This document shows, piece by piece, positions 15,581-31,183 of a DNA stretch of 64,000 nucleotides. The notes beneath the pieces were generated by a model that was given only the letters and a program-made list of their open reading frames with translations, made no database searches and was not told the DNA's origin. Source of the stretch: a virus. Lineage: Duplodnaviria; Caudoviricetes. How positions within the stretch are numbered: position 1 is the stretch's first letter; every line of letters starts with the position of its first letter. The stretch is taken from positions 64,001-128,000 of the IMG/VR virus record IMGVR_UViG_3300023170_004399; one strand, written 5' to 3'. A program made the position numbers and the translations under genes.

Positions 15581-15581
15581 G

Positions 15582-16664
15582 ATGAATAACGCATACACAG
15601 AGTGGAATAATATTACTAGTCAATTATTTGATTCTTATATTTTAAAATATGAACTTCAAGAAATTATATATACTAACAACTATGTTTTATATGATGCTGA
15701 TAATATTAAAATTGACAGTATTAATAATAAATTTGCAAACGTTGCTGATATATGTGTAATTGTACCTTTTTTTGGTCGTTTCCAACATGTTGTCAACACA
15801 TGTCAATCAATAATAGATGCTGCTGCAAAAACTAAATTAAATATTGAGCTAGTACTAATAGAAAAAGCTGATACCCAAGAAGATTTAAAAGCACATAATT
15901 TTTTTGCTTATTCAAGATTTAACATGATGCCAAAAAATTTACAATTTTTCTGTATACAAAAAGTGCATGCAAACTATAAATCAAAAGGTTTGTTAATGAA
16001 TTTGGGCGCACTACTTCGGCCGAATGCAAAATATTATTTAGTACACGATAGTGATATCATTGTTCAGTCTAGTTTTTTTAACAAAATACAAAAAAATATT
16101 GAACGTAGAGGTGAAGTAAATTTTATGCAACCTTATAGTAATAATAGAATATTGTTGACTACTCCGATGTTAGCGGAAATGTACTTTACAAATATTATAA
16201 GTAATGATGATTTAAATGAAAAAATGCCTGGTGTTTTTGTAAATAAAAACTGGTATCAAAAACAATATTCTTATGGTGGTTCCGTGCTAATTTCAAATAA
16301 AGCATATTACGGTGTTGGTGGGTTTGATGATCAAATTTTCTGGACTTGGGGTGCTGAAGATATAATGTTTTGGACAAAACTAATAGATAAATATGGCCAA
16401 CCAATATATGCTGATTATGACATAAACATGTTTCACATTTATCATCCACCATCAATTAATGAACAAACTTCACAGGGTGATTTTTTAAATAAAATGTTTA
16501 CTTTGTCAGAAAAAATGTGGAACATGTATCAAAATATTGATCTTAACTCTAGGCTAAATTATATTAATAAAAAATCAAAATTTTTATCTAAATATAAAAA
16601 CTTAGACATTGACATAAAAGATGCTATTTTTAAATTTAAAAAAATTAGCAGCAGGAGATTATAG
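15582..16664 (+). CDS. GT-A glycosyltransferase with galactosyltransferase (GT7C-like) C-terminal motif
   Basis: 'IVPFFGRFQH', 'KGLLMNLGA', 'VHDSD', 'GGFDDQIFWTWGAED', 'FHIYHP'. Confidence 0.8.
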   Translation: MNNAYTEWNNITSQLFDSYILKYELQEIIYTNNYVLYDADNIKIDSINNKFANVADICVIVPFFGRFQHVVNTCQSIIDAAAKTKLNIELVLIEKADTQEDLKAHNFFAYSRFNMMPKNLQFFCIQKVHANYKSKGLLMNLGALLRPNAKYYLVHDSDIIVQSSFFNKIQKNIERRGEVNFMQPYSNNRILLTTPMLAEMYFTNIISNDDLNEKMPGVFVNKNWYQKQYSYGGSVLISNKAYYGVGGFDDQIFWTWGAEDIMFWTKLIDKYGQPIYADYDINMFHIYHPPSINEQTSQGDFLNKMFTLSEKMWNMYQNIDLNSRLNYINKKSKFLSKYKNLDIDIKDAIFKFKKISSRRL

Positions 16665-16667
16665 ATC

Positions 16668-18245
16668 ATGAAAAATAATAAAAACATACTAGGGTTTTAT
16701 GGCTCACATGATGCATCAGTAACCTATCTAGACAAAAAAGGAAAAATAAGAATTCTAGAGTTTGAGAGATTTTCTAAAAAAAGATACGCAATGTATTCAG
16801 ATAGGTTTGACCACAGGACAATTGGTACGAATAATGAAACAAGATCAGCTTTTTTAAACTACGTGTCCCAAGATATAAAGACTACTGATGATTTAGTTAT
16901 TGCTTATAATGAGCTTTCTGAAACTGATATTGCTTTTATAAAAAAACATTTTGAAAAAGCAAAATTTATACAATGCAACCATCATCAAGCGCATGCTTAC
17001 TGTGCATATTACCAGTCCCCTTATAAAACAGCACATGTTATATCTTTGGATGGAGGAGGTCTAGATAATGGTGCAGTTTCAATGTCAAAAGTTTTTTATG
17101 CTGACAAAGATAAAGTAGAAGAAATTTTTGACCCAAAGATAGATTTAGGTAATCCATATGCAAAGTTAGGTTACGTAATATCTGAAATAAATCATGGTTA
17201 TGACGGTCAAAAAATGTCACTTGCATATGCTGGTAAAATAATGGGTTTATGTGCATATGGTAATGCAAGAATGGAATGGCTTAAACCAATGCAAAAGTAC
17301 TATAAGCACAAATCTTTGGATAAACTCGCAAAAGATATCGGCTTAATTTTGGGTCAAAATAGCTTAAGTGGACAAGTTGGTTTTGATTTAGCAGCGACCA
17401 GTCAACACGTTTTTGAAGATATAGCTTTTAATTTAGTTAAAAACGTTTTTGATAAGAAAAATGATAATATTATTTTAACCGGTGGTTGTGCACTCAATGT
17501 TTTATTTAATCAAAAATTAAAGCTTTTTTTAAAAAATACTGATTACGATCTTTTCGTGCCACCTAATCCAAACGACTGTGGGCTTTCTTTTGGTCAGTAT
17601 TGCATGTTTAACAATGTAAAGCATAATGACATATTATATAATGGTTTCCCCGTATTAGATTTACAAAAATTAGACGCTGTTGTCAAGAATTACAATGCAA
17701 AAAAAATAAAAACTAGTGACATTGTAGACTTGTTATCGCAGGGAAAAATAATTGGTTTAGTTTATGGTGATTCTGAAGTAGGACCTCGTGCGCTAGGAAA
17801 TAGAAGCATTATTTGTGATCCTAGTTTTAAAAACATGAAAGATGTTTTAAATCTTAAGGTTAAATTTAGAGAGTGGTTCCGTCCATTTGCCCCAGTTTCT
17901 CTTTTAGAAGACGCACCAGTTTTTTTTGATGATGCTTTTGAATCACCGTATATGAGTTATGCCCCAAAAGTAAAGGAAGAATATCAAAATATTTTAAAAG
18001 CTATTACACATGTAGATGGAACGTCAAGACTGCAAACAGTTACAAAAGGGCAACACAAGCTTTTTTATGACATTTTAGTTTGCATGAAAAAAAATAAAAA
18101 AACACCAGTACTGTTAAATACTTCATTTAATATTAAAGGTTATCCTATACTGACAACAATTGAAGATGCGCTGTATGTTTTAAATAACACTGAGCTTGAC
18201 CATGTTATAATTCAAGGCTACTTGTTTTCGAAAAAAGGTTTATGA
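16668..18245 (+). CDS. carbamoyltransferase (NodU/CmcH/TobZ family)
   Basis: 'HDAS', 'HHQAHA', 'DGGG', 'GGCALN', 'EVGPRALGNRS', 'KFREWFRPFAP', 'HVDGTSRLQTV', 'LLNTSFN'. Confidence 0.95.
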   Translation: MKNNKNILGFYGSHDASVTYLDKKGKIRILEFERFSKKRYAMYSDRFDHRTIGTNNETRSAFLNYVSQDIKTTDDLVIAYNELSETDIAFIKKHFEKAKFIQCNHHQAHAYCAYYQSPYKTAHVISLDGGGLDNGAVSMSKVFYADKDKVEEIFDPKIDLGNPYAKLGYVISEINHGYDGQKMSLAYAGKIMGLCAYGNARMEWLKPMQKYYKHKSLDKLAKDIGLILGQNSLSGQVGFDLAATSQHVFEDIAFNLVKNVFDKKNDNIILTGGCALNVLFNQKLKLFLKNTDYDLFVPPNPNDCGLSFGQYCMFNNVKHNDILYNGFPVLDLQKLDAVVKNYNAKKIKTSDIVDLLSQGKIIGLVYGDSEVGPRALGNRSIICDPSFKNMKDVLNLKVKFREWFRPFAPVSLLEDAPVFFDDAFESPYMSYAPKVKEEYQNILKAITHVDGTSRLQTVTKGQHKLFYDILVCMKKNKKTPVLLNTSFNIKGYPILTTIEDALYVLNNTELDHVIIQGYLFSKKGL

Positions 18246-19084
18246 TGAAATATGTTATAACAGCAAAAGGATTATTAGATGTCAATACTGGCAATGGTTC
18301 GTTTTCCGGCGGAACACCAGTTTCTCAAACAGAGTGCGCGACAGAACTTATAATTACAAGATTAGAAGCTATTAATTTATTTAAACAAGGCTTGATAAAC
18401 AGTGACACATGTGTTGTAACATTACCGGAAAGAAGATTTTTATATGAGAATATTTTTACTAAAACAGAGGTGTATAACCCAAGTAAAGTTTATAAAGATT
18501 GCATTGATTTAGTTTCAAATGAAAGTATAGAGAGATTGTGTAAAAAATTGCCTTATAAACCTTTTTACAAATATTTTGACCGTGACAAAAAAGAGATATT
18601 AGATATACCACTTAACAAATCAATACTAAATATGGAGTGTGATCAATTTCTTATTTGTATTCCTAGACTAAAAAACTCAGACACTAGAAGAAATTTAGAA
18701 CAGAATTATTGGGAAAATTTTATAAAAAAAGCTAGTAAAATATATAGTAAAGTATGTGTTTTTGGGAAAGGCAATCAAAATTTAGATAATGGTAAAAATA
18801 TTGTTTATATTGATACACTAAAAGATTATTGTAGTTATTTGCACCACCCAAATTGTGCGCATGTTGTTAGTACAATATCAGGACCATGTCATTATGCGCA
18901 ATCATTTTCAAATACGGGTGGAAAAACTTTGTTAACAATGATTGATAATTATAATTTAATAGAAAAGCATGGAGATGATCCTTCTTACTTTCACCCATGT
19001 ATCAACTTTACAAATATTAAAATTAACTTTATTAAAAAAGTGCCAACAGTTGATGAGCTATTGGAAACACTGGAGGAAAAATGA
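18242..19084 (+). CDS. hypothetical, possibly a divergent GT9-like glycosyltransferase
   Basis: 'RRNLEQNYWENFI' and 'VVSTISGPCHYA' echo the GT9 'K.WP.E.W' and 'DSGPMHLA' motifs; lies inside the glycan island. Confidence 0.4.
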   Translation: MMKYVITAKGLLDVNTGNGSFSGGTPVSQTECATELIITRLEAINLFKQGLINSDTCVVTLPERRFLYENIFTKTEVYNPSKVYKDCIDLVSNESIERLCKKLPYKPFYKYFDRDKKEILDIPLNKSILNMECDQFLICIPRLKNSDTRRNLEQNYWENFIKKASKIYSKVCVFGKGNQNLDNGKNIVYIDTLKDYCSYLHHPNCAHVVSTISGPCHYAQSFSNTGGKTLLTMIDNYNLIEKHGDDPSYFHPCINFTNIKINFIKKVPTVDELLETLEEK

Positions 19085-19431
19085 TAGGTAAAAAATTAGA
19101 CAAATATATTGAGGAAAAAGTTGCTGAAGTGCTTAATAAAACAAAATTTCCGGAATATGATAATATACATAGTGATTCTTTTTCTGAATTGATAGATAAA
19201 CTAATAATTGTGCACACCAGGCTTTGGTATCTTGAAGATGCTTTAAATGTTGAAACTGACCCACATAAAATTGCTGAGTTAAAAAGAAAAGCAGATGTTA
19301 CATTTAAAGAAAAAAGACCTATGTTGGTCAAAGCAATCGATAAAACAATCACAAATATGTGCAATGGAAAATATAATCCAACAGTTGAAAATATAAAAGC
19401 TTATAAAGGTTATAAAAAAGAAAATGAATAA
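19081..19431 (+). CDS. small helical protein, DUF4254-like
   Basis: 'SFSELIDKLIIVHTRLWYLED...IAELKRK...LVKAID' resembles the DUF4254-type pattern seen in glycan clusters. Confidence 0.5.
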   Translation: MIGKKLDKYIEEKVAEVLNKTKFPEYDNIHSDSFSELIDKLIIVHTRLWYLEDALNVETDPHKIAELKRKADVTFKEKRPMLVKAIDKTITNMCNGKYNPTVENIKAYKGYKKENE

Positions 19432-20383
19432 AGATGATAAAATTTTAGTTGCTGGTCATAGAGGATTTGTAGGAAGTAATTTAGCTAAGCACTTAAAAAA
19501 TCTAGGTTATACAAATATTAGTGGTTACACTAGAAAACAAGTAGATCTATCTAACGTACATGAAACTAACTCTCTTTTTAAATCACAAAATTTTGATTAT
19601 GTTTTTATGTGCGCAGCAAAATGTGGCGGATTACAAGCAAATTTAGATGACCCATATAGTTTTTTGTACGATAATTTAGTCGTACAAAATAATTTAATAC
19701 ATGCATCAATAGAAAACCATGTTAAAAAAGTACTGTTTTTAGGTTCAAGTTGCATTTATCCAACAAATTATAAGCAACCACTAAAAGAAGAATACATATT
19801 ACAGGGTCCAGTTGAACCAACAAATGAAGGCTACTCAATTGCTAAAATAGCAGGGCTTAAACTTTGTGAATATGCTAACAGCCTGCTAGGACAAACTCAT
19901 GGCGGCATAAAACATACGACCAAGTTTATTTCACTAATGCCTTGTAATTTATATGGGCCAGGCGACGATTTTGATCTTAGAAATTCACACGTAATGGCAG
20001 CATTAATCAGGAAATTTGTTGAAGCAAAAAAAACAAATGCAAATCACGTAAAAATATGGGGAACTGGTAAAGCCAGGCGTGAATTTTTATACATTGATGA
20101 TTTGTCAAGTTGTATGGTGTGGGCTATGACAAATATTGAAAAGACTAAAACATTTTTAAATGTAGGTACTGGCTGTGACATAAGCATAATAGAATTAGCA
20201 AAAATGATAGCAGAAATAGTAGATTTTAATGGTGACATAGTTTTGCAAAAAGAAAAACCAGAAGGCATGATGAGAAAGTGTTTGGATGTTGAAAAAATAC
20301 AAAAACTTGGTTGGCGACATCAGGTTCTACTGCAAGATGGTGTCAACAAAACAGTAAAATATTATATTGATAATTATTCGTGA
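19424..20383 (+). CDS. fcl: GDP-4-keto-6-deoxymannose epimerase/reductase (GDP-L-fucose synthase; ColC-like)
   Basis: 'VAGHRGFVG', 'AAKCGGLQAN', 'FLGSSCIYP', 'EPTNEGYSIAK', 'MPCNLYGPGDDF', 'SHVMAALIRKF', 'WGTGKARREFLY'. Confidence 0.95.
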   Translation: MNKDDKILVAGHRGFVGSNLAKHLKNLGYTNISGYTRKQVDLSNVHETNSLFKSQNFDYVFMCAAKCGGLQANLDDPYSFLYDNLVVQNNLIHASIENHVKKVLFLGSSCIYPTNYKQPLKEEYILQGPVEPTNEGYSIAKIAGLKLCEYANSLLGQTHGGIKHTTKFISLMPCNLYGPGDDFDLRNSHVMAALIRKFVEAKKTNANHVKIWGTGKARREFLYIDDLSSCMVWAMTNIEKTKTFLNVGTGCDISIIELAKMIAEIVDFNGDIVLQKEKPEGMMRKCLDVEKIQKLGWRHQVLLQDGVNKTVKYYIDNYS

Positions 20384-20390
20384 GTTTCAT

Positions 20391-21218
20391 ATGAATTCTA
20401 AAAAGCCATTAAATATAAATCTCTATGGGGGTGATTTTAGTCACCAATCTTGTAGTACATTAAATCAAGTATCAAAAACTATATCATGGAACATAACGTC
20501 TTATGATAGTAATATAAGTTTTTATGCTGATAAAAAAATAGATAAGTTATTAAGTGATAAAAAAAGTGATGTAGTTTTTGGCTGGCTTCTAGAAGCTAGT
20601 TGTTTAATAAAAAAACAAGTCAGGTATTGCATAAATAATCATAACGCGTTAAAAAAGAAAGCCAAGTTTATTTTTACACATTGTTCAGAACTTTTAAATC
20701 TAGATCCAGATTTTTACAAATTTGCACCGACAGATGGCACATGGATAAAAAAACCAAAAATACATGATAAAACTAAAGCAATATCTTTTATCACTAGTAA
20801 TAAATCATACACAGTCGGACATAAAAAAAGATTACATTACTTAAATAAGTTTCGTTCACACGTCGACCTGTATGGAAGGGGTTTTTTTGAAATAGAAGAA
20901 AAAGAGTATGGCCTTAATGATTACATGTTTTCAATATGCATTGAAAACGATTTTGACAATTTGTTTTTTACAGAGAAAATTTTAGATTGTTTTGCAACCG
21001 GTACTATACCAATATATTTAGGGGCGAAAGACATTGGTAAATATTTTGCTACTGATGGTATTATTTTTTTAGATGAAAATACTGACGTCACCTTGCTGAA
21101 TAAAAATTTGTATCTAAGTAAACTTGATGCTATTAATTATAATTATAAAAAAGTAGTAAATGAATTTATGAATTCTGAAGACTTTATATATCACAACTAT
21201 TTACAAAATATTTTGTAA
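20391..21218 (+). CDS. glycosyltransferase family 10-like (alpha-1,3/4-fucosyltransferase-like)
   Basis: 'YMFSICIEND...FFTEKILDCFATGTIPIYLG' is the GT10 signature; start reassigned to ATG 20391. Confidence 0.8.
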   Translation: MNSKKPLNINLYGGDFSHQSCSTLNQVSKTISWNITSYDSNISFYADKKIDKLLSDKKSDVVFGWLLEASCLIKKQVRYCINNHNALKKKAKFIFTHCSELLNLDPDFYKFAPTDGTWIKKPKIHDKTKAISFITSNKSYTVGHKKRLHYLNKFRSHVDLYGRGFFEIEEKEYGLNDYMFSICIENDFDNLFFTEKILDCFATGTIPIYLGAKDIGKYFATDGIIFLDENTDVTLLNKNLYLSKLDAINYNYKKVVNEFMNSEDFIYHNYLQNIL

Positions 21219-21239
21219 GAATTTTAGGATACTGTTATT

Positions 21240-22052
21240 ATGCTTTGTAGCATTGAAAAATTAATAAATAAAGAATTAAATAAAGATTGTTATGTTCTAG
21301 GTTTAGGACCATCATTAAAAAATAGTTTAGATTTTTTAAAAACTATTGACAGAGAGAAAACTGTTATTATTTCATGTAATCACATTGATGCAATGACGGA
21401 TATTGTGCCAGATTACTGGGTGATTGCTAACAATTTACCTGAATTTAATATTGAACAAAACTATAAAAAGTATAACAAATTTAGAAATACAAAATTGGTA
21501 TATTGTTATAGAGCTTGTAATGCTAGTTATAGAAAAAAATACGTATATCTGAAGCATGACAAATTTTATGATCAAAATCATTTACAGCATGATTTAAACT
21601 TAGTGTCTTGCGATTTTGTCCCCTTTTCCGATTGTCTTTTTTGTCCTCCGGAGTTAAAAAAAATAAATATTAGCGCATGTAAAAGGACACTAAATGAAGT
21701 ATACTGTGATTACATTGGACAAAGTGACTATATGTATTATCACAAAAACGGTGGAAGATGTCATACTGTCGCAACACATATGTTAAAGTTAGCTATAATA
21801 CTTGGCTGCAAGAATATAAATATATCCGGAGTAGATTTAGATTACAGCAAAGGGTATGTTAACAACAGTCCAAAAAATGGTGTTAAACCTAGGAAAAAAT
21901 TGGGTTTAACCCTTATGAAGGCCAAAGGGAGAGATGAAACTATAAAATACATCAAGTTAATTAAAGATGATAGCAAAAAAGTCGGTGTTAAGCTGTATTC
22001 TCTAATAGAAAATGGCAATATAAATTCTGTTCTAGAATATAAAAAAACTTAA
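21240..22052 (+). CDS. Maf/DUF115 (MptE-like, CstII-like) putative CMP-sugar transferase
   Basis: 'CYVLGLGPSL', 'IISCN', 'DYWV', 'TVATHMLKLAIILGCKNINISGVDLDY'. Confidence 0.65.
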   Translation: MLCSIEKLINKELNKDCYVLGLGPSLKNSLDFLKTIDREKTVIISCNHIDAMTDIVPDYWVIANNLPEFNIEQNYKKYNKFRNTKLVYCYRACNASYRKKYVYLKHDKFYDQNHLQHDLNLVSCDFVPFSDCLFCPPELKKINISACKRTLNEVYCDYIGQSDYMYYHKNGGRCHTVATHMLKLAIILGCKNINISGVDLDYSKGYVNNSPKNGVKPRKKLGLTLMKAKGRDETIKYIKLIKDDSKKVGVKLYSLIENGNINSVLEYKKT

Positions 22053-22110
22053 GAATAATTTAAACATGTTTAAGTCTAATAGTATTATATTATAAAAATT
22101 AGAGGTAAAT

Positions 22111-22689
22111 ATGCACATAGATTTTGAAAATATCGAAAATAAATTAGCGTCAAGTATCGACAGCGATGAATATAAAAATTTAGTTGATAAAATTAAAAAA
22201 GTTGATAGAATTTACTTGCTAGGAAATGGTGGTTTGCATTTTGTCGCAGGACACATGTCAACAGATTTAACCAGGTTAATTAAAAACAAAGTAGCTTATT
22301 CATTTGATTCGGTTGGCTTTGTTACTAGTAATGCTAATGATCATGGTTTTGAAAATCTATTTGTTAGATGGTTAGAAACAACGTCTTCTGTTGATTCACC
22401 CGAGAAATGTTTAGTAATAGGCATGTCATGTTCAGGAAACTCTACTAATGTTGTTAATGCACTAGACTGGGCTGAAAAAAATAATTATAAGACTTTTCTA
22501 ATAAGCGGCCAAAAATCACAAAATTTAAGTGCCGGTATCGATGAACTTACTTTTAATTGTAAATATTTTCACACTGTTGAGGTTTTGTGTATGATGTTGT
22601 TTTATGATGTTGTTCATGCTGTCGGCAGTTTGTGTCCATCGATAAATGAAGAAAAGAAAAGATTAGTTAACTCATCTTTGCGAGGTTAA
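22111..22689 (+). CDS. SIS-domain sugar-phosphate isomerase, GmhA-like (divergent)
   Basis: 'IYLLGNGG', 'TSNANDHGFENLF', 'IGMSCSGNSTNVVNALDWA'. Confidence 0.8.
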   Translation: MHIDFENIENKLASSIDSDEYKNLVDKIKKVDRIYLLGNGGLHFVAGHMSTDLTRLIKNKVAYSFDSVGFVTSNANDHGFENLFVRWLETTSSVDSPEKCLVIGMSCSGNSTNVVNALDWAEKNNYKTFLISGQKSQNLSAGIDELTFNCKYFHTVEVLCMMLFYDVVHAVGSLCPSINEEKKRLVNSSLRG

Positions 22690-22690
22690 T

Positions 22691-23077
22691 ATGATACCAA
22701 GATTGCATTCATTTGATGATGAAACTAAACAAATAGGTATAGATTTTGACGGCGTTATTCATGCAAACTCTAAAGGTTTTTTTGATGGCACCGTTTATGA
22801 TGTACCTGTTCCAGGTTCTATAGAAGCAATTAAAAAAATATCTAAAAAATATGACATTGTAGTTTTTAGCGCAAAAGCGAGAACAGATAGAATGTTAATA
22901 AATGGTAAGACTGGTGTAGAACTCATTAAGGATTGGTTGCAAAAACACGGCATATTAAAATATGTAAAAGAAGTAACAGCAGAAAAGCCTCGTGCTGTTG
23001 CTTACATTGATGACAAAGCGATAAGATTTACCACATGGGAAAATGTGTTTGACAATATGGATGATTTAGGAATATGA
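22691..23077 (+). CDS. HAD-superfamily phosphatase (capsule-biosynthesis type)
   Basis: Motif I 'IGIDFDGVI', motif II 'VFSA', motif IV 'YIDDKAIRF'. Confidence 0.8.
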   Translation: MIPRLHSFDDETKQIGIDFDGVIHANSKGFFDGTVYDVPVPGSIEAIKKISKKYDIVVFSAKARTDRMLINGKTGVELIKDWLQKHGILKYVKEVTAEKPRAVAYIDDKAIRFTTWENVFDNMDDLGI

Positions 23078-24264
23078 AAATAGTTGCAATAGTACCAGCG
23101 CTATCTGGTGGGCAAAGGTTACCAAATAAAAACCTTTTATTGGTCGATGGTGAACCAATGATAAGTTATGTACTTTCCGCTTTAACAAAAACAACTGCCA
23201 TAAACGATGTGTTTGTAAGTACTGATATTCCGGAAATTAAAAACTTCGTAAATTTAAATTTTAAAGAAGTAAAGTGCGTTGATAGATTATCAAACTATGG
23301 TGGGACTAGCTGCAAGATGAAAAATGCATCTGCAGATTGCAATGGAAAAAGATGTCAGGTACACGATCACTACCTCTATGATTTTATTAATAATGTTGAT
23401 GCTGACATATTAATACAAGTGCATACCACATCACCACTTTTAAAAGCTTCAACCATTAATTCTTTTGTACAAAAAATGTTAGATGAAGATTTAGATTCTT
23501 GCTTTGCAGTTAACAACCACCAAAAAGAGTGTTTGCTTTCTTCCGCACCTATCAATTTTTCTTTAAAAAAGAAGACTCCAACACAAGATTTAAAAGTTGT
23601 TTCAGAGATAGCTTGGGCAATTTCCGGATGGAAAATTACATCATTTAGAGACGCTTATGAAAAAAATCAAAGTCCATCGTTTGTTGGCAAAATTGGTTGG
23701 CACCCAATAAACAAGCTGGAAGCTATAGACGTTGACGACTGGGAAGATTTATACATTGCTGAAGCTTGTTTATCACATGCAAAACGTATTGAAAATGTCG
23801 GACAAAAAAAATTAACAATCGAAACAACTAGCATAGAACGAGAATTAAAAGATTTAATTGAGAAAGATGGTTGTACACAATCTGAAAAAGTAACATATAA
23901 TCAAATTCTAAACAATATATATATTGCTAAAAATGAAATGGGCACCGGGTCATGGTGTTACCCAGTCATTATCACGGACAATGATCAAGCGTGTTTTATC
24001 CAACAAGTACCGGGTGAAGGCTGTAGATGGCACAATCACCCAACTAAAGATGAGTTCTGGATTGTTATGGATGGTAAATTTGCATTTGAAATAGACGGGT
24101 TTGAACCGGTTATTGCAAAAAAAGGCGATGTTGTTTATGCAAAAAAAGGAATAAATCACAGAATTACATGTGTTGGCGATAAACCAGGTATAAGATTAGC
24201 TTGTGGAGAGAGAAATTTTGCTCACATATATGAAAACAATGAGCCACCTAAGAGATTTAAATGA
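23074..24264 (+). CDS. acylneuraminate/KDO-type cytidylyltransferase fused to a C-terminal cupin
   Basis: 'IVPALSGGQRLPNKNLLLVDGEPMI', 'VSTD', 'QVHTTSPLL', 'IDVDDWED'; cupin 'PGEGCRWHNHPTKDEFWIVMDG...KKGINHRI'. Confidence 0.85.
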   Translation: MKIVAIVPALSGGQRLPNKNLLLVDGEPMISYVLSALTKTTAINDVFVSTDIPEIKNFVNLNFKEVKCVDRLSNYGGTSCKMKNASADCNGKRCQVHDHYLYDFINNVDADILIQVHTTSPLLKASTINSFVQKMLDEDLDSCFAVNNHQKECLLSSAPINFSLKKKTPTQDLKVVSEIAWAISGWKITSFRDAYEKNQSPSFVGKIGWHPINKLEAIDVDDWEDLYIAEACLSHAKRIENVGQKKLTIETTSIERELKDLIEKDGCTQSEKVTYNQILNNIYIAKNEMGTGSWCYPVIITDNDQACFIQQVPGEGCRWHNHPTKDEFWIVMDGKFAFEIDGFEPVIAKKGDVVYAKKGINHRITCVGDKPGIRLACGERNFAHIYENNEPPKRFK

Positions 24265-24926
24265 ATTTAATAATGCTTGGACATACTGGCTCAATTGGTC
24301 ATTACATTTTTAATAAATATAAAAATCAAGGTTTCAATATCACTGGTTACTCGAGTAAAGATTTTAATGCGGAATCTGATAGTGACGTAAAAAATATTGC
24401 CGAAAAAATACGTAATACTAAAAAAATCGACGGTTTTATAAATTGTATGGGTGTTGTCGATTTACCTGAGTATAAAAATGTGGTTTCTTTTAACAAACTT
24501 TTAAACATTAATTTAAAAGCTGCATTTGCTTTAAGCGTAGCCGCAGCTGAAAATATGAAAAGCCACAAAAGTGGTTCAATCATAAACATTGGTTCAATTG
24601 CATCAAATAATGTGAGAATTGGCCGGGTAGGTTATACTGCTACAAAAGCTGGTCTTGAGGGACTAACTAGAGCTTTGGCAATAGAATATGCACAATATAA
24701 TATTAAAATAAATTGTGTTGCCCCTGGACCTACTGAAACTGATTTGTTAAGAAATACCTTAAGTAAAAAAGATTTTAAAAATTTAATAACACTAATGCCA
24801 ATGCAAAATTTAGTACAACCTAATGATATTTACACTACAGTTGATTTTATTCTAACAAAAAATAACTGTATAACTGGCCAAACAATTGTGGTTGATGGTG
24901 GATTAAGTATCAAATCTAATTTTTAA
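24261..24926 (+). CDS. short-chain dehydrogenase/reductase (SDR)
   Basis: 'GHTGSIG', 'INCMG', 'IINIGS', catalytic 'YTATKAG', 'NCVAPGPTET', 'TGQTIVVDGG'. Confidence 0.9.
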   Translation: MNLIMLGHTGSIGHYIFNKYKNQGFNITGYSSKDFNAESDSDVKNIAEKIRNTKKIDGFINCMGVVDLPEYKNVVSFNKLLNINLKAAFALSVAAAENMKSHKSGSIINIGSIASNNVRIGRVGYTATKAGLEGLTRALAIEYAQYNIKINCVAPGPTETDLLRNTLSKKDFKNLITLMPMQNLVQPNDIYTTVDFILTKNNCITGQTIVVDGGLSIKSNF

Positions 24927-24937
24927 TAAAGGAAAAT

Positions 24938-25726
24938 ATGATATCAGTTAACTTAATGGGTCGTTTTGGAAATCAGCTTTTTCAAATTGCCACTGCAGAA
25001 TCATTGGCTATTGATAATGGTGCATCGACAGTCTATTTTAACACTGTTGCTGGTACAACCCCTAAGCTGCATGAAACAATGTTATATATGAATACTTATT
25101 ACAACAAAATAAATTTTTTACCACATAACCTAATAAAATCTTTTAAATTTAATGTGTGCAGTGAGAAAGAATTCGCATTTAATCCAATTCGATACAGCCC
25201 AAATATGCTGCTAAATGGATATTTCCAATCAGAAAAATATTTTTTTCACAATGGTCATTTGATTAAAAAATTATTAAGCATGCCCGACAAGCAAATTAAA
25301 GTTATAAAACAGTTGCACCCGGATTTATTTGCGACAAACTTAAATGATTATGCTTGTGTACATGTACGCCGCGGCGATTATGTAAATTTGTCTAATGTAC
25401 ATACGAATCTAGCAGAGGATACTAATTATTACATTGATGCAATGCGTGAATTCGAGAATAAAAAATTTATTTTTTTCTCCGATGATATTTCTTGGTGTGC
25501 TAATTATTTTGGTAAAGAGCATACGTATTTTACTAGTGCATGTGACATATATGATTTTTACATAATGGGTTTGTTTAATAATGTTATAATGAGTAATTCA
25601 ACCTATTCATGGTGGTCTACTTGGTTGTATGAAAAAGATGACAAAAAAATAATAGCACCAAAAAAATGGTTCTCTAATAATATAAATTCAAATGATTTAA
25701 TACCTAACAGGTGGAGTTTAGTATGA
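24938..25726 (+). CDS. glycosyltransferase family 11 (alpha-1,2-fucosyl/colitosyltransferase-like)
   Basis: 'GRFGNQLFQ', 'GYFQSEKYF', 'VHVRRGDY', 'FSDDISWC', 'SNSTYSWW'. Confidence 0.92.
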   Translation: MISVNLMGRFGNQLFQIATAESLAIDNGASTVYFNTVAGTTPKLHETMLYMNTYYNKINFLPHNLIKSFKFNVCSEKEFAFNPIRYSPNMLLNGYFQSEKYFFHNGHLIKKLLSMPDKQIKVIKQLHPDLFATNLNDYACVHVRRGDYVNLSNVHTNLAEDTNYYIDAMREFENKKFIFFSDDISWCANYFGKEHTYFTSACDIYDFYIMGLFNNVIMSNSTYSWWSTWLYEKDDKKIIAPKKWFSNNINSNDLIPNRWSLV

Positions 25727-26874
25727 TAAAATTAGTACAAGATACTATTGACTACAGTGACATAGAATACTTAATTAGTTGGTTGAAAACAAACCCAAGA
25801 TTAACTAAAGGGCCAATAACTCAACAGTTTGAGAAAGAATGGGCATCTTTTCAGGGTGTTGGTTACACTACTTATGTTAACTCCGGTTCTTCTGCAATAC
25901 TTTTAATGTTATATGCACTAATAGTTGCAAAAAAAATAAAGCCCGGTGACAAAATAATTGTGCCGGCAATTTCTTGGGCAACAGATTTAGCACCAGTTAT
26001 ACAGTTAGGCCTTGTACCAATATTATGTGATTGCAATCTAGATGACTTATCAGTTGACCTAGATGCTTTGGAAAAACTATGTGCTGATGAAAAACCAAGT
26101 GCTTTGATATTAGTTTCAGTTTTAGGCCTAGTTCCTAAAATGGATAGTATTGTAGATATATGTCAAAAGTATAACGTTGTATTACTTGAAGATGTTTGTG
26201 AATCTTTGTATTCTCAGCACAAGGGGAAACAGCTTGGTAATTTTGGTTTAATGTCTTGTTTTTCATTATATTTTGGTCATCACATTTCTACGATTGAAGG
26301 TGGTATAATTTCTACAAACTGTGATGAAATGAATTGCATTTTAAAATCAATAAGAAATCATGGTTGGGACAGAGATCTAAACACAAACAAACAAAAAGCA
26401 TTACGAAAAGAACATAACGTATCTGACTTTGATGCTTTATATACTTTCTACTACCCGGGTTTCAATGTGCGTGCCACAGATTTGCAAGCATATTTAGGAC
26501 TAAAACAGCTAGGAAAAATAAAACCTTATTCAGAAAAGCGTGAGGAAAATTACAAGCATTACCAAAAATCCTTACCGGATTCTTTTTGGAAACCAGTCTA
26601 TAGAAAAAATACGTTTATATCTAGTTTTTGTTATCCTATCATACATGAAAAAAGGGACAAAATAGTTGCTAACTTATTAAAAAACAATGTCGAGTGTAGA
26701 CCGCTTATTTGTGGCACAATGGGTAGACAGCCAATGTATGTTTCAAGGTATGGTGTAAAAAAATTAAAAAATGCTGATTATGTTTCTAAATATGGTTTTT
26801 ATATACCTAATCATCAAAATTTAACTTTTAAAAATATTGATAATATAGTTAATATTATAACAGAAACAATTTAA
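25723..26874 (+). CDS. colD: PLP-dependent DegT-family enzyme with active-site His (ColD-like GDP-4-keto-6-deoxymannose 3-dehydratase)
   Basis: 'NSGSSA', 'EDVCES', and 'SLYFGHHISTIEGG' with His at the position of the usual Schiff-base Lys. Start reassigned to ATG 25723, which has a GGAG RBS. Directly upstream of gmd. Confidence 0.7.
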   Translation: MIKLVQDTIDYSDIEYLISWLKTNPRLTKGPITQQFEKEWASFQGVGYTTYVNSGSSAILLMLYALIVAKKIKPGDKIIVPAISWATDLAPVIQLGLVPILCDCNLDDLSVDLDALEKLCADEKPSALILVSVLGLVPKMDSIVDICQKYNVVLLEDVCESLYSQHKGKQLGNFGLMSCFSLYFGHHISTIEGGIISTNCDEMNCILKSIRNHGWDRDLNTNKQKALRKEHNVSDFDALYTFYYPGFNVRATDLQAYLGLKQLGKIKPYSEKREENYKHYQKSLPDSFWKPVYRKNTFISSFCYPIIHEKRDKIVANLLKNNVECRPLICGTMGRQPMYVSRYGVKKLKNADYVSKYGFYIPNHQNLTFKNIDNIVNIITETI

Positions 26875-26887
26875 ATAGGTAAACACA

Positions 26888-27865
26888 ATGAAGAAAACAG
26901 CGTTAGTAACCGGTGTCACTGGTCAAGATGGCTCTTATTTAGTAGAATTTTTACTCGAAAAGGGTTATAGAGTTATTGGTATTAAAAGAAGGACTAGTCT
27001 TATAGCAACGGGGAGAATAGACCACTTATTATCAAATGACAATTTTATTTTAAAATATGGTTCAATGCATGACTCCGGATGGATGTACGAAGTTATTTCA
27101 AAATATAAACCGCAAGAAATATATAATTTAGCAGCACAAAGTCATGTACGCGTAAGTTTTGATTGTTCTATTGAAACTGTTGATATTGTTGCGACAGGGA
27201 CTTTGCGTTTATTAGAAGCTTGTCGATTATTATGCCCGGAAGTAAAATTTTATCAAGCTTCATCTTCTGAAATGTTTGGTGACAACCCTGTCAACCCACA
27301 GAGTGAAACTACAAAGCTGCAGCCAGCATCACCATATGCATGCGCTAAAGTTTTTTCACACAATCTTATGCATAATTATCGGCAAAGTTATAATATGTTT
27401 TGCTGCTCAGGCATACTTTTTAATCATGAATCTCCCAGAAGAGGGGAAACTTTTGTTACTAGAAAAATTACAAGAGCTGCAGCTAGAATTAAACTAGGTT
27501 TGCAAGATAAATTATATTTAGGCAATCTAGAAGCCAAACGTGACTGGGGGCATTCAAAAGATTATGTTGAAGCAATGTGGTTGATGTTACAACAGAAAGT
27601 GCCTGATGATTTTGTCATAGCGACGGGAAAGACTTACTCTGTAGCAGAGTTTTTAAAGACAGTTTTTGATTATGCTGGATTAAGTATTGAAAAACATGTT
27701 GAGTTTGATAAAAGGCTGCTAAGACCTCATGAGGTGCCTTTGTTGTTAGGGGATCCAAGTAAAGCTAAAAAAGTTTTAGGGTGGAAACCTAAATATGACA
27801 TGCATAGTTTAGCAAAAGAAATGTATGATTCTGATTACATATATTTTAAAAACTTTTTAACATAA
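26888..27865 (+). CDS. gmd: GDP-mannose 4,6-dehydratase
   Basis: 'TGVTGQDGSYL', 'YNLAAQSHVRVSF', 'YQASSSEMFG', 'PASPYACAK', 'FNHESPRRGETFVTRKIT', 'RDWGH'. Confidence 0.97.
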   Translation: MKKTALVTGVTGQDGSYLVEFLLEKGYRVIGIKRRTSLIATGRIDHLLSNDNFILKYGSMHDSGWMYEVISKYKPQEIYNLAAQSHVRVSFDCSIETVDIVATGTLRLLEACRLLCPEVKFYQASSSEMFGDNPVNPQSETTKLQPASPYACAKVFSHNLMHNYRQSYNMFCCSGILFNHESPRRGETFVTRKITRAAARIKLGLQDKLYLGNLEAKRDWGHSKDYVEAMWLMLQQKVPDDFVIATGKTYSVAEFLKTVFDYAGLSIEKHVEFDKRLLRPHEVPLLLGDPSKAKKVLGWKPKYDMHSLAKEMYDSDYIYFKNFLT

Positions 27866-27919
27866 AAACACAAAACTGTTGGTATATTATCTTATATATT
27901 TAAAATAGGATTAATTATT

Positions 27920-28771
27920 ATGATGTTACCAACTGGAAAAGCACACATATCGTTTAGTGAAATTAAGCTATGGGCAGAATGTTCTTATAGGCATAAGTTG
28001 ACATATGTTGATAAGTTAGATGCGTATCAAGATAACCAATATGCTGATTTTGGAACAATATGCCACAACCATATTGAGATATTTTTAAAATCAAAAAAAC
28101 CAATATCAGAAGATCAAGTAATTATTGATTTTAAAAACATGTGGAAAGAAAGAAGGTACGATAGTGATGAGTTTATTTTAGAAAAAAAGGAAAGCGATAA
28201 GAAATACAAACATGTTTATTTAGAAACCTGGGTTAAATATGCATTGCAAATATTAAGTGAATTCCCGGAGTGGATGAATAGCACGTTTCCCGATTATCAA
28301 GTTTTATCAGTCGAAGAATTGCTGATGGAAGACATAGAAGGTCATGATCAAAAATTTAAAGGCTTTATTGATTGTATAATAAAAGTGCCAAAGAAAAATG
28401 ATAAATATTTATATTACATTATTGATTGGAAAACGACAGGCCCTGGAGGCTGGTTTTATCTCAAAAAAAGGGATTTTAACAGTTTAGCACAAATTGGTAT
28501 GTATAAGCTGTTTTGGTCAAAAAAATATGAAGACATCAATGTCAAAGATATAAGAACCGCTTTTGTATTTCTAAAAAGAGGTGCAAAACCTGGGAAGTGT
28601 ATAGATATATTTACAGTGTCAACTGGGCCGAAGTTTTTAGAAAAATCTAGTAAACTAATTAACACAATGCTTTATAATGTTAAGAAAGGTGTTGCATTGC
28701 GAAATTATAGCAATTGCAAATTTTGTCCATTTAAAAATACGGAGCATTGCAGTGGTGGAGAATACACGTAA
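27920..28771 (+). CDS. PD-(D/E)XK nuclease, Cas4/RecB-like with putative Fe-S staple
   Basis: 'SFSEIKLWAEC', 'KGFIDCII', 'IIDWKT', 'QIGMY', C-terminal 'CKFCPFKNTEHC'. Confidence 0.85.
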   Translation: MMLPTGKAHISFSEIKLWAECSYRHKLTYVDKLDAYQDNQYADFGTICHNHIEIFLKSKKPISEDQVIIDFKNMWKERRYDSDEFILEKKESDKKYKHVYLETWVKYALQILSEFPEWMNSTFPDYQVLSVEELLMEDIEGHDQKFKGFIDCIIKVPKKNDKYLYYIIDWKTTGPGGWFYLKKRDFNSLAQIGMYKLFWSKKYEDINVKDIRTAFVFLKRGAKPGKCIDIFTVSTGPKFLEKSSKLINTMLYNVKKGVALRNYSNCKFCPFKNTEHCSGGEYT

Positions 28772-30008
28772 AAAAAAGATAGTAGTTTTATCAGATCACG
28801 CGCTATCTACTAGTGGCGTAGGTACGCAGACTAGACACTTAATACATGGTTTGTTAGAAAAAGGCACGTGGTCTTTTAGGCAGTTAGGTGCAGCTATGAA
28901 ACATGCATCATATGACGTTATTACAGTAAATGATGATTTTATTATTAAACCAGTTGATGGATTTGGCACTAAAGAACAAATACGATTAATATTAGCTACA
29001 GAGAAACCTGACGGTATTTTAATATTTACTGACCCAAGATTTTTCGTTTGGTTTTTCGAAATAGAAGATGAAGTAAGACAAGTTTGTCCAATATTTTATT
29101 GGCACGTATGGGATAATGCACCATATCCGGCTTTTAATAATCCTTATTATGATTCATGTGATCTGATTAATTGTCATAGTTACCACACCTTCGAACAAGT
29201 TTCCGAAAAATACCCAGAAAAGACTAATTTTGTGCCGCACGCTTTGCCAAACGATATTTTTTATGAAATACCAGAAGAAGAAAAAAATGCAATGAAAAAG
29301 CAGTTTTTTGGCGACTCCGGGGAAGATTTGTTTATTGGTTTCTGGATGAATAGAAATGCAAAAAGAAAGAGGCCAGGCGACTTATTGCTAGCATGGTCTA
29401 TGTTTATAAAAACGTTAGAGAAAAATCACGGACACAAAAAAGCTAAACTAATAATGCACACTGATCCTAGAGATAATGAAGGGCCTAATTTAATTGCAAT
29501 AGTAGATATGTTAGGAATAAGAGATAATGTTTTATTTTCTAATCAGAGAGTTGGATTTAAAGAAATAAATATATTGCATAATATTGCTGATTTTACTATC
29601 AACATATCTTTTGCAGAAGGGTTTGGTCTTTCAACACTAGAAGCTATGCAAACGGGGACACCTATTATTGCTCCTAAGACTGGCGGTCAAACACGACAAG
29701 TAGTTGATCACCGTGATGGCAGCGAAAATGGTTTTGCTTTGCCTATTGAATTTAAAACTTTAGTTGGCTCACAAAATGTGCCTTACATTTATGAAGATTA
29801 CACTAGCATAGAAACTATTGCAGAAAAAATTACTGCTATGTATGAGTTAGGAAAAGAAGGTCGAAAAGCTTTAGGTGAAAAAGCAAAAAAATATGTCGAA
29901 AGTGAGTTTAACTATCAAAAAACAATAGACTTGTGGCATGATACAATGAATGAAACAATAGAGAAGTTTCAAAAAAACACTAGAAGATTTACTTGGAGTA
30001 GTTTATAA
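28755..30008 (+). CDS. glycosyltransferase family 4
   Basis: 'SGVGTQTR', 'NRNAKRKRPGDLL', 'EGFGLSTLEAMQTGTPII'; likely GTG start at 28755 with GGAG upstream. Confidence 0.9.
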   Translation: MENTRKKKIVVLSDHALSTSGVGTQTRHLIHGLLEKGTWSFRQLGAAMKHASYDVITVNDDFIIKPVDGFGTKEQIRLILATEKPDGILIFTDPRFFVWFFEIEDEVRQVCPIFYWHVWDNAPYPAFNNPYYDSCDLINCHSYHTFEQVSEKYPEKTNFVPHALPNDIFYEIPEEEKNAMKKQFFGDSGEDLFIGFWMNRNAKRKRPGDLLLAWSMFIKTLEKNHGHKKAKLIMHTDPRDNEGPNLIAIVDMLGIRDNVLFSNQRVGFKEINILHNIADFTINISFAEGFGLSTLEAMQTGTPIIAPKTGGQTRQVVDHRDGSENGFALPIEFKTLVGSQNVPYIYEDYTSIETIAEKITAMYELGKEGRKALGEKAKKYVESEFNYQKTIDLWHDTMNETIEKFQKNTRRFTWSSL

Positions 30009-31183
30009 TGAAAACAATGCTTATAAGAGGTCCACTTTTAAGTCAAAGTGGTTATGGCGTACACTCAAGACAAATATTTAAATGGGCACTAGAAAACACT
30101 GATTATCAAATATTTGTGCAGGTGTTACCTTGGGGGATTACACCATGGTATACAAATAGTGATGCATGTGATGGGCTAATTGGTGAAATATTTAAACGGA
30201 CGGCACCAATTAATACTAAGTGTGATGTTTCAATGCAAATACAACTTCCTAATGAGTGGGATACTAGTTTAGCAAAAACAAATATTGGTGTCACTGCAGT
30301 TGTAGAAACTGACATATGTAGCAAAGAATGGGTAAACGCTTGCAACAATATGAGTGCTGTAGTTGTGCCTTCTAAATTTTGTAAACAGACTTTGCTAAAT
30401 TCAGGTCACAGTGGCAAAAATCTTTTTGTAATTAGCGAGTCTTTTATTGATGAATGCAATTTGCCTATTAGAGAAAGTTACCCTTTTAGGACCAGCGTAA
30501 ATTTTCTTCTGTTCGGCCAAATAACAGATATGAACGTTGAAACAGATAGAAAAAATACCTTCAATGCTATTAAATGGTTTTGTGAGACATTTGAAGAAAC
30601 TGTTGGTGATGATGTACATCCGGATGATGTTGGATTAGTTATCAAAACTAATTGTGGTACAAATAGTAAAATCGATTACAATTTAACAAAAAGGCAATTA
30701 GAAGCATATATAAAAAATGTGCGCAAAGGTAATTATCCAAAAATATATTTATTACATGGTCATATGACGAATGAAGAAGTTGTTGGTTTATACAAACACC
30801 CAAAACTTTTAGCTTTGTTAGCGCCAACTCGTGGTGAAGGATTTGGTTTGCCAATTTTAGAAGCAGCAGCATGTGATTTACCGGTAATAGCAACAAATTG
30901 GTCCGGACATTTAGACTTTTTAGGTGATGATCATTGGCTCAAAGTAGAAAAAAGAACGGTGATGGTGCCACCCGGGAAAATAGATGGTCGTATCTTTGTA
31001 GAAAATAGCAAATGGGCTGAGCCATTAGAGTTCAGTTACAAGCAAAAACTAAGATATGCAGCTATGAATATGGTAGAAGTTAAATCTGAAGCAAAAAAAC
31101 TAGGTAAAAAAGTAAGATCAAAGTTTAGTCACAAAGTCATTGTTAAAGATTACAATAAGTTATTTAGGCGTTTGAAATGTTAG
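30008..31183 (+). CDS. glycosyltransferase family 4
   Basis: 'SQSGYGVHSR', 'DRKN', 'RGEGFGLPILEAAACDLPVIATNWSGHLDF'. Confidence 0.9.
   Translation: MKTMLIRGPLLSQSGYGVHSRQIFKWALENTDYQIFVQVLPWGITPWYTNSDACDGLIGEIFKRTAPINTKCDVSMQIQLPNEWDTSLAKTNIGVTAVVETDICSKEWVNACNNMSAVVVPSKFCKQTLLNSGHSGKNLFVISESFIDECNLPIRESYPFRTSVNFLLFGQITDMNVETDRKNTFNAIKWFCETFEETVGDDVHPDDVGLVIKTNCGTNSKIDYNLTKRQLEAYIKNVRKGNYPKIYLLHGHMTNEEVVGLYKHPKLLALLAPTRGEGFGLPILEAAACDLPVIATNWSGHLDFLGDDHWLKVEKRTVMVPPGKIDGRIFVENSKWAEPLEFSYKQKLRYAAMNMVEVKSEAKKLGKKVRSKFSHKVIVKDYNKLFRRLKC

Follow-up and report, generated by a model that had tools for sequence, protein, structure and literature searches.

How could a phage gene block that sets a SIS protein, a phosphatase, a cytidylyltransferase and a CMP-type transferase side by side yield an activated sugar when no synthase for the carbon skeleton accompanies them? 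The block was analysed within a window of 64,000 nucleotides (64 kb, the whole stretch of DNA under study), taken from a ~270-kb phage contig; the carrier is a large salt-marsh phage. With confidence a little short of even, we read the block as the phosphatase version of a modular CMP-ketosugar pathway, in which a host seven-carbon 7-phosphate would be converted to a CMP-hept-2-ulosonate that caps a virion glycan. The features on which the argument draws are as follows.

12158-31183, + strand, glycosylation island of ~19 kb, unbroken and co-oriented; the five genes sit inside it
21240-22052, + strand, ORF 1, CstII/Maf-like transferase (270 aa)
22111-22689, + strand, ORF 2, SIS protein (192 aa)
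22691-23077, + strand, ORF 3, short HAD phosphatase (128 aa)
23074-24264, + strand, ORF 4, cytidylyltransferase-cupin fusion (396 aa)
23074-23793, + strand, NeuA-fold cytidylyltransferase domain of ORF 4, residues 1-240 (CTP_transf_3 match, predicted structure)
23299-23370, + strand, Cys/His insertion of ORF 4 (C80, C89, R93, C94, H97, H99), conserved in 94-96 of 96 homologues
23821-24243, + strand, C-terminal cupin of ORF 4 (Cupin_2) with a His3Glu metal site (H320, H322, E327, H362)
24261-24926, + strand, ORF 5, SDR (221 aa)

All five reading frames are intact, and both the linkage and the domain types given in the preliminary description were borne out, including the fusion and the SDR (CTP_transf_3, Cupin_2 and PF13561 domains). 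ORFs 2-5 are spaced by a 1-base gap or overlap by 4 bases, and the transferase ORF lies 58 bases upstream of the SIS ORF. The surrounding island encodes GT2, GT7-like, GT10, GT11 and GT4 enzymes, a carbamoyltransferase, Gmd-type and Fcl-type epimerases and a DegT aminotransferase, and is the probable source of the acceptor glycan; baseplate genes lie downstream of it (gp25-like at 34249, baseplate J-like at 34757). Promoter-like sites occur at chance level (55 vs 47.9 +/- 7.1), as do hits of the terminator scan. The island being continuous and co-oriented throughout, any boundary drawn around five genes is arbitrary, and the earlier notion of a fixed five-gene unit finds no support, since a 76%-identical relative retains four genes with the transferase swapped. 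The conserved unit is those four: SIS, HAD, cytidylyltransferase-cupin and SDR. Contigs from other samples match the block nearly letter for letter, so that it is not an assembly error.

No ulosonate synthase lies near the block, as had been claimed: PF03102 and PF00793 found no match among the ORFs of the 64-kb window scanned with Pfam; tblastn of the 64 kb (E<0.01) returned no NeuB, DAHP synthase, aldolase (two types) or DHQS, and no Gfo/Idh/MocA, SerA-like, inositol monophosphatase or KdsC protein; and KdsA, like NeuB, DAHP synthase and aldolase, is missing from the window. Relatives as a rule show the same gap, which is thus not accidental. As anticipated, the genes recur together in other genomes (dozens of aquatic phages, and also bacteria and archaea). 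The idea of an undescribed route to a CMP-sugar that lacks a PEP synthase of its own is supported. A first viral scan with a single-protein query gave no match; no full-length relative was present in plasmids for the window's fusion, or in GenBank phages for the clade II fusion, which lacks the Cys3His insertion.

The SIS protein has the SIS fold with sugar-phosphate loops, and its best PDB matches are all GmhA (E 1e-15), a binder of sedoheptulose 7-phosphate; against the GmhA model it scores 57 vs a cut-off of 209 bits. Its phosphate loop (S106-S108-G109-S111) and N76-D77 are retained, and the GmhA ligand set H61, E65, Q172, H180 reads H, D, E, Y here, the changes at E65, Q172 and H180 being the informative ones. 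With three of four GmhA metal ligands lost, the substrate may have changed. The protein and its relatives form a clade of their own in the tree (support 100/99), with H48, D52, H154, E157 and Y165 invariant; by these sequence features it is a distinct GmhA-derived, phage-enriched subfamily ("SIS-b") and not KdsD, predicted to act as a sugar-phosphate isomerase or epimerase. Of what was first said of this protein, the likeness to GmhA stands; SAADAQH as the defining motif does not, E. coli GmhA itself having SHCDAMH.

The HAD protein matches phrog_1238 (E 1e-15) and retains all of motifs I-IV (DFDG, S, K, DD); the 17 rows of an alignment share them, with S or T in the second. It has no match at E 0.01 to TIGR01670 or PRK09484 (KdsC/YrbI), which the phosphatase of a related locus (L070) does match, and is predicted to take off the terminal phosphate ahead of CMP activation. 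The step-for-step correspondence to KdsD and KdsC proposed at first is not supported, the SIS protein being GmhA-derived and the HAD protein lacking a KdsC model match.

The model of the cytidylyltransferase domain (pLDDT 95.6) superimposes on V. cholerae NeuA with Z 25.1 and rmsd 2.6 over 203 aligned residues. K19, D219 and D221 (nucleotide-binding Lys, Mg-binding DxD) are kept in 95 of 96 homologues; replaced are R12 to L10, Q104 to H117 and R165 to T170 (N. meningitidis numbering first), the R165 position being T in 93 of the 96 and K167 invariant. Arg165 of NeuA is carboxylate-binding, and R165A abolishes activity (PMC2901514). K167 or R93 could substitute for it. The Cys3His insertion, probably a zinc site to judge from its conserved residues, marks clade I of the fusion and is absent from NeuA/KdsB and clade II. 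In the cupin, the metal site and R318, R374 and H384 are invariant (96/96 homologues); fold searches gave a generic fold whose top matches tie at Z 10-13 (best 13.4), are mostly uncharacterised and single out no function. Elsewhere the cupin stands alone or is fused to SIS. It is predicted to carry out a tailoring step that leaves a carbonyl, and the SDR, a classical one (PF13561, E 1e-36, YxxxK intact) grouping beside the SDR family of sister modules, is predicted to reduce that carbonyl intermediate.

The transferase, of GT42 type, matches PF01973 (MptE-like/Maf; E 2e-16, 60.8 bits vs a cut-off of 34.6); its family profile finds CstII nearly full length at E 2e-4 and the Maf entry 5mu5 at E 0.21, and the PseD model scores 24 vs 670 bits. 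Its best solved relatives are the glycan-capping sialyltransferases CstII/CstI, although equivalents of CstII R129 and H188 are not clearly conserved in the family (full-length alignment, E 2e-4). Relatives fill this slot with GT29-like genes or DUF7796, and a Maf-CT-cupin triple fusion exists; the transferase is the exchangeable part of the module and is predicted to use a CMP-ketosugar donor. Direct glycosylation of protein in the manner of flagellin Maf, as first suggested, is not supported, the protein being a single domain of 270 aa, unattached to any other, that comes closest to CstII/CstI among solved structures.

Related modules follow strict swap rules. Among 44 non-redundant loci, 25 have a DHQS-like gene only, 13 a phosphatase only, 2 both and 4 neither (p = 4e-6 for mutual exclusion, with kinship among loci ignored); among 45 SIS-anchored phage loci, a set that partly overlaps the first, the counts are 30 DHQS-like, 10 phosphatase and 0 both. 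The HAD gene is exchangeable with inositol monophosphatase or KdsC-like genes. The DHQS-like partner occurs in addition to the housekeeping aroB, resembles true DHQS (E 1e-41) more than it does the other cyclases of sugar phosphates (E from 1e-17 to 1e-24), and retains positions D146, K152, E194, K250, R264, N268, H271 and K356. Of 31 clade I fusions, 29 have an SDR no more than 6 kb away; in this set several clade I loci that are truncated or have a degenerate insertion were counted with clade II (L026 is the only one of them in the 4-kb set), and L162 is clade II. A class-III aminotransferase accompanies 29 of 33 cupin modules, 0 of 12 cupin-less ones and 0 of the 31 clade I modules (SDR carriers). 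Sister modules also carry Gfo/Idh/MocA, SerA-like, 6-phosphogluconolactonase and NanQ-like genes, which together would readily allow heptose 7-phosphate to be oxidised to a hept-2-ulosonate. The split between SIS-b and dehydrogenases is perfect, but dehydrogenase loss maps to one branch of the tree, and the split was rejected as independent evidence. The window's HAD family and similar S/T-Q cytidylyltransferases are found in phages with a DAHP synthase (L219, over the cut-off) and in phages with HpcH/HMGL aldolases.

The substrate of DHQS is heptulosonate 7-phosphate. Since phosphatase and DHQS-like gene exclude each other and both remove a terminal phosphate, one shared substrate is suggested, and we infer the following order of steps. 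The carbon skeleton would come from the host, as sedoheptulose 7-phosphate or as DAHP, host DAHP synthase then supplying the "missing" PEP step; the SIS protein would rearrange the seven-carbon 7-phosphate and the HAD protein strip the 7-phosphate; the cupin would make a carbonyl and the SDR reduce it, for a net epimerisation or deoxygenation; the NeuA-fold domain would join a hept-2-ulosonic acid to CMP as a glycoside; and the sugar would be passed by the CstII-like enzyme to an island-built glycan, most likely on virion proteins. Gene content, folds, residues and co-occurrence are observed here; substrates, step order, carboxylate source and acceptor are all deduced from them. Against the seven-carbon reading, the window has neither a synthase nor the two dehydrogenases, so that nothing encoded there accounts for the carboxylate; DAHP entry would leave the role of SIS-b on DAHP unexplained; and the replacement of carboxylate-binding R165 appears to speak against a hept-2-ulosonate. 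A carbocyclic, quinate-like product was rejected, there being no DHQS-like gene here and a carbocycle being unable to form the oxocarbenium for GT42/GT29 transfer.

The R165 replacement bears on a first alternative, which we hold to be unlikely: a neutral CMP-ketose. Here SIS-b would turn sedoheptulose 7-phosphate into an isomeric heptulose phosphate that is then dephosphorylated, and as no carboxylate would ever arise, neither a synthase nor an oxidation would be needed. The T at the R165 position and the poorly conserved CstII R129 would suit such a sugar, and two minimal phage modules (L149, L168) hold only SIS-b, HAD, cytidylyltransferase and a GT29-like gene. Yet losing R165 does not prove the sugar neutral, since S occupies that position in cytidylyltransferases that pair with pyruvate aldolases, and the DHQS-like partner keeps the basic residues that bind the carboxylate in DHQS. 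Every donor characterised for GT29/GT42 enzymes is, to our knowledge, an acid, and a CMP-ketoside without a charge on the sugar would be expected to break down very easily.

The cellular carriers bring in a second, which has a similarly small chance: SIS would feed an unusual aldose phosphate to host KdsA, NeuB or DAHP synthase, or the block would tailor a host ulosonate (e.g. Kdo 8-phosphate), the product being a modified C8-C10 ulosonate. All 20 of 20 cellular carriers have a PF00793 gene, NeuB adjoins the module in many bacterial ones, SIS, HAD and cytidylyltransferase recall the KdsD, KdsC, KdsB layout, and L070 uses its KdsC-like phosphatase; but the adjoining NeuB genes have their own 250-aa NeuA-type enzyme with the RRQD motif kept, two small archaeal genomes (incomplete MAGs) with the module and a DAHP-synthase-type gene show no KdsA or NeuB, and the DHQS-like swap suits seven carbons better than eight or nine.

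A conventional CMP-Kdo, CMP-Kdn or CMP-Neu5Ac, whose synthase would be encoded by the host or by another part of the contig, is very improbable, as the first reading had held. The NeuA fold and the CstII-like transferase would agree with it, and 64 kb of the ~270-kb contig were searched; against it stand the replaced R12, Q104 and R165, NCBIfam CMP-transferase scores far below cut-off (PseF 54.8 vs 205.7; KdsB 52.5 vs 255), the scarcity of NeuB or PF00793 genes among 18 viral records of relatives (3 have one; the records are fragments, 3-71% complete), and the lack of any purpose for cupin, SDR and DHQS swap. Less credible still is a cupin that forms the carbon-carbon bond in place of a PEP synthase: its metal site is complete, its arginines are invariant and related plain cytidylyltransferases pair with aldolases, but twelve SIS-b modules have neither a cupin nor a synthase of their own, so that the cupin is optional, its presence tracks aminotransferase or SDR, and no lyase is singled out by fold. 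The CDP-polyol or CDP-sugar option of the preliminary description can be set aside almost entirely, for despite a faint IspD match (E 0.03, 14.6 vs 27 bits) and an SDR beside the cytidylyltransferase that recalls TarI/TarJ, NeuA structures are closer in fold (Z 24-25 vs 19-20 for IspD/TarI), the TTSP and DxD motifs are NeuA-type, the partners are CMP-type (GT42/GT29-like) transferases, and the phosphatase would destroy the phosphate needed.

Recurrence under strict swap rules without an own synthase makes it probable that the module encodes so far undescribed monosaccharides; both its phosphatase version and the rules of exchange were derived in the present analysis. The CMP-sugar donors known to us are Kdo-type and nonulosonate acids, all made by a PEP synthase. 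It is possible, if doubtful, that the whole family makes CMP-activated seven-carbon ketosugars without PEP-dependent condensation, by rearranging or oxidising sedoheptulose 7-phosphate, perhaps even a neutral CMP-heptulose, and that phages put them on virion glycans as caps resembling sialic acid; CMP-sugar chemistry would then gain a new point of entry, and enzymes of the GT42/GT29 fold a new class of donor. Direct identification of the product is feasible, the window version being small (four soluble enzymes and a transferase) and the base module being available in cultured carriers, and the block would offer a lead on short-chain ulosonate synthesis and on what large phages place on their particles.

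Several known systems compare with the block. The cupin-less base module occurs in surface-glycan loci of the cultured bacteria Leisingera aquaemixtae, Sinorhizobium fredii SMH12 and Paenibacillus cellulosilyticus; its SIS shows the H, D, E pattern seen here, and it too has a phosphatase and an S/T-Q cytidylyltransferase, but the phosphatase is an inositol monophosphatase, Gfo/Idh/MocA and SerA-like dehydrogenases are added, and there is no cupin. Base-module gene names appear in the gene list of the Leptospira Hardjo sru locus as well. Searches of the literature found no paper characterising the base module, and on the gene combination or on hept-2-ulosonic acid in polysaccharides nothing, or gene lists only. 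Against TIGR04425 (AroB-related putative sugar phosphate phospholyase, hypothetical), whose cut-off is 400, the DHQS-like gene found in sister modules reaches 380; in the window version this gene is absent and the HAD phosphatase is in its place. PMI-GMP enzymes (ManC/AlgA type) are nucleotidyltransferases with a C-terminal cupin, but are alike in architecture only (weak PF01050 match, E 0.06), with another transferase family and another nucleotide, and nothing points to the cupin here as a mannose-phosphate isomerase. Two Shewanella Mafs are of 441 and 822 aa (bioRxiv 10.1101/2023.12.03.569772); flagellin Maf is multi-domain, whereas here a 270-aa single domain lies in a phage structural context without flagellin genes. 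The transferase aligns with CstII over the full catalytic domain, through segments of the types G-x-GPSL, cysteine-asparagine and SG-x-D-x-x-Y. GmhA shares with SIS-b the GNGG, ND-x-G and S-x-SG-x-S motifs and H61, SIS-b differing in its separate clade and its lack of HldE/GmhB partners. From the CMP-ulosonate pathways (KdsD, KdsA, KdsC, KdsB; Kdn 9-phosphate; NeuA/PseF/LegF) the block differs in having no synthase, a GmhA-derived SIS, a HAD other than KdsC, replaced R12, Q104 and R165, the Cys3His insertion, fused cupin and SDR, and, in relatives, the DHQS-like swap; it shares with them an isomerase, a phosphatase, a NeuA-fold CMP transferase with K19 and the DxD metal pair, and a CMP-dependent transferase.

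All five open reading frames of the block were recovered intact, the last four translationally coupled, and family searches returned the identities proposed in the preliminary description: PF01973, a GmhA-like SIS (below cut-off), a short HAD, a CTP_transf_3 plus Cupin_2 fusion, and an SDR. The block occupies the central part of a 19-kb island that also encodes about nine glycosyltransferases; a GDP-deoxyhexose route is interleaved with it, as epimerases, a DegT-family enzyme, GT10 and GT11 lie on both flanks. The ulosonate synthase is missing from the 64-kb window, as earlier claimed: the search there returned neither a synthase nor an aldolase, nor any gene of dehydroquinate-synthase-like, Gfo/Idh/MocA or SerA-like type.

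12158-31183, + strand, glycosyltransferase island
18242-19431, within the island, 280-aa ORF (no family match) and 116-aa DUF4254-like ORF, after a carbamoyltransferase
19424-20383, 20367-21218 and 24938-27865, Fcl-type and Gmd-type epimerases, DegT-family enzyme, GT10, GT11
21240-24926, + strand, the block: CstII/Maf-like transferase, SIS, short HAD phosphatase, cytidylyltransferase-cupin fusion (the fusion), SDR
21-2979 and 7691-8989, phage-borne SpoVR-like and PrkA (YeaG-type) genes, and PIN-PhoH gene

Identical fusion proteins are carried by 20 contigs from salt-marsh metagenomes (longest, 269,730 bases); the source is a large tailed phage, to judge from its one-strand gene layout and from downstream genes of baseplate J-like and gp25-like type. 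Synteny with other genomes, as earlier proposed, holds for four genes, which recur; the exact five-gene order turned up only in the same phage population. At 76%, the closest relative retains all four (SIS, HAD, fusion, SDR) and differs in the gene at the transferase position; other phages (collected loci L035-L037, L067, L070, L109) keep the four with a Maf-like or GT29-like transferase; the smallest modules (L149, L168) comprise SIS-b (the GmhA-derived, phage-enriched clade into which the window SIS falls), HAD, a plain cytidylyltransferase and a GT29-like gene. A third variant (L143, L151, L158, L163, L171, L177) has a plain cytidylyltransferase, DegT aminotransferase, dehydroquinate synthase (DHQS)-like gene and SIS-b, without cupin or SDR.

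The nearest relative of the window SIS is GmhA; its phosphate loop is kept and three of four ligand positions are changed (E65 to D, Q172 to E, H180 to Y). Absence of SAADAQH, earlier taken as a difference from GmhA, fails as an argument, E. coli GmhA likewise lacking it. The HAD has all four motifs; its assignment to KdsC was rejected on family-model search.

The fusion family comprises 97 full-length homologues. Of three residues that matter in N. meningitidis NeuA, R165, essential and sugar-carboxylate binding (PMC2901514), is T170 in the fusion family (93/96), Q104 is H117 (96/96), and R12 is L10 in the fusion; K19 and the D219/D221 pair are kept. Relative to NeuA, the fusion has an extra loop (C80, C89, C94, H97, H99), probably a zinc site to judge from its residues. 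In the cupin the His3Glu site is complete and R318, R374 and H384 are invariant; among solved cupins the fold search found none standing out as a relative. Profile searches returned another clade, which lacks the cysteine loop (clade II; the window's is clade I), stand-alone cupins and a SIS-cupin fusion; at L117:752-5101 the latter (P0272) adjoins a second SIS-like gene, a 465-aa NeuB and a class-III aminotransferase. At L035:9280-9612 a 110-aa hybrid joins a cytidylyltransferase start to a SIS gene end, apparently by internal deletion; in near-identical L034 this position holds an intact clade II fusion, so that clade I and clade II fusions stand in tandem in some phages.

Phosphatase and DHQS-like gene are mutually exclusive: 44 non-redundant fusion loci gave 25 with DHQS only, 13 with phosphatase only, 2 with both and 4 with neither, and 45 SIS-b loci gave 30, 10 and 0 (DHQS, phosphatase, both), the two sets overlapping in part and kinship being ignored. 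Three unrelated phosphatase types occupy the phosphatase slot. Every DHQS-like gene of the SIS-b set is accompanied by SDR (24/30) or an adjacent DegT aminotransferase (6/30), which is what a carbonyl-producing DHQS step would predict. Class-III aminotransferase occurs in 29/33 cupin modules versus 0/12 cupin-less ones, and clade I modules have it in 0/31 and SDR in 29/31; the cupin thus probably leaves a carbonyl, whose fate would be amination in clade II and reduction in clade I.

In addition to housekeeping aroB, the DHQS-like partner represents a second copy. Its nearest family is true DHQS, most positions of the DHQS active site are retained, and its score falls just short of TIGR04425, which is listed as a hypothetical family. 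The substrate of DHQS is a heptulosonate 7-phosphate and that of GmhA is sedoheptulose 7-phosphate, and both partner and SIS therefore point to seven carbons. In other phages the same HAD family lies beside true DAHP synthase or pyruvate aldolases. A phage DAHP synthase stands in a glycosylation island beside HAD and cytidylyltransferase at L219:5974-8888 and L125:4963-5823, which suggests CMP-DAH synthesis; HpcH-type or HMGL-type aldolases paired with cytidylyltransferase and HAD, and often with a Maf-like gene as well (L217, L218, L220, L059, L095) are another phage route without NeuB or KdsA. Two incomplete archaeal genomes hold the module and a DAHP-synthase-type gene, with no KdsA or NeuB in them. 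Cultured bacteria carry a cupin-less base module, in which SIS is joined by Gfo/Idh/MocA, SerA-like and inositol-monophosphatase genes; these carriers are practical strains in which to identify the sugar.

L137:2505-7606, base module, Leisingera
L138:537-6660, base module, Sinorhizobium fredii (adjoins kpsC-like gene)
L139:5520-10895, base module, Paenibacillus

One carrier adds 6-phosphogluconolactonase, a listing for which also exists in Leptospira Hardjo (bioRxiv 10.1101/771931); judged from gene content, this set reads as a putative PEP-free route from ketose 7-phosphate through aldose and aldonate to 2-ulosonate. Both dehydrogenases are missing from the window's version, and in the SIS-b viral records searched (fragments) they are represented by one SerA-like gene only. 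A Desulfocapsaceae glycan cluster (L026:1244-16009) combines shikimate-dehydrogenase-like and DAHP-synthase-like genes, three cytidylyltransferases and a full base module.

We tentatively favour, over all rivals, a CMP-hept-2-ulosonate that cupin and SDR would tailor; the window's version may take a carboxylate from host DAHP or host dehydrogenases, or have none. A neutral CMP-heptulose, also of seven carbons, is unlikely. No more probable is a C8-C10 ulosonate built with a host synthase: NeuB near modules nearly always has its own canonical NeuA (exception, L119). Ordinary Kdo, Kdn or Neu5Ac is quite improbable, set against the NeuA replacements, even with CMP-Neu5Ac, CMP-Kdn and CMP-Pse synthetases as best structural matches of fusion residues 1-240 (Z 25.1; model pLDDT 95.6). 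The cupin is still less probably an aldolase, and a CDP-polyol is hardly credible, IspD and TarI ranking below those synthetases.

The transferase is tied to the product of the cytidylyltransferase-cupin fusion by a Maf-CT-cupin triple fusion. The window's enzyme can be aligned over the catalytic domain of CstII (E 2e-4), its match to solved Maf barely there; flagellin-type transfer to protein, as first proposed, is not upheld, and the 270-aa protein looks like a glycan-capping enzyme. The most likely acceptor is a glycan on virion proteins, since the island lies near structural genes and mycobacteriophages offer a precedent (cited in a passage of PMC12619734). DNA is the lesser option, based on its modification by phage glycosyltransferases (a passage of PMC12619734) and on one relative's module among replication genes. 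At L113:7141-11647 (also L029, L060) fusion, SIS, SDR, Maf-like gene and epimerase are flanked by ribonucleotide reductase on one side and recA/dnaB/primase genes on the other. The L113 module is away from any glycosyltransferase island, and a DNA-directed role there is possible.

A literature search, with most subscription journals outside its coverage, found no paper describing the module. The block is a real, conserved, uncharacterised variant: on the features tested it falls outside the Kdo and nonulosonate pathways, GmhA, KdsC and flagellin Maf, but it works like the CMP-ulosonate pathways.
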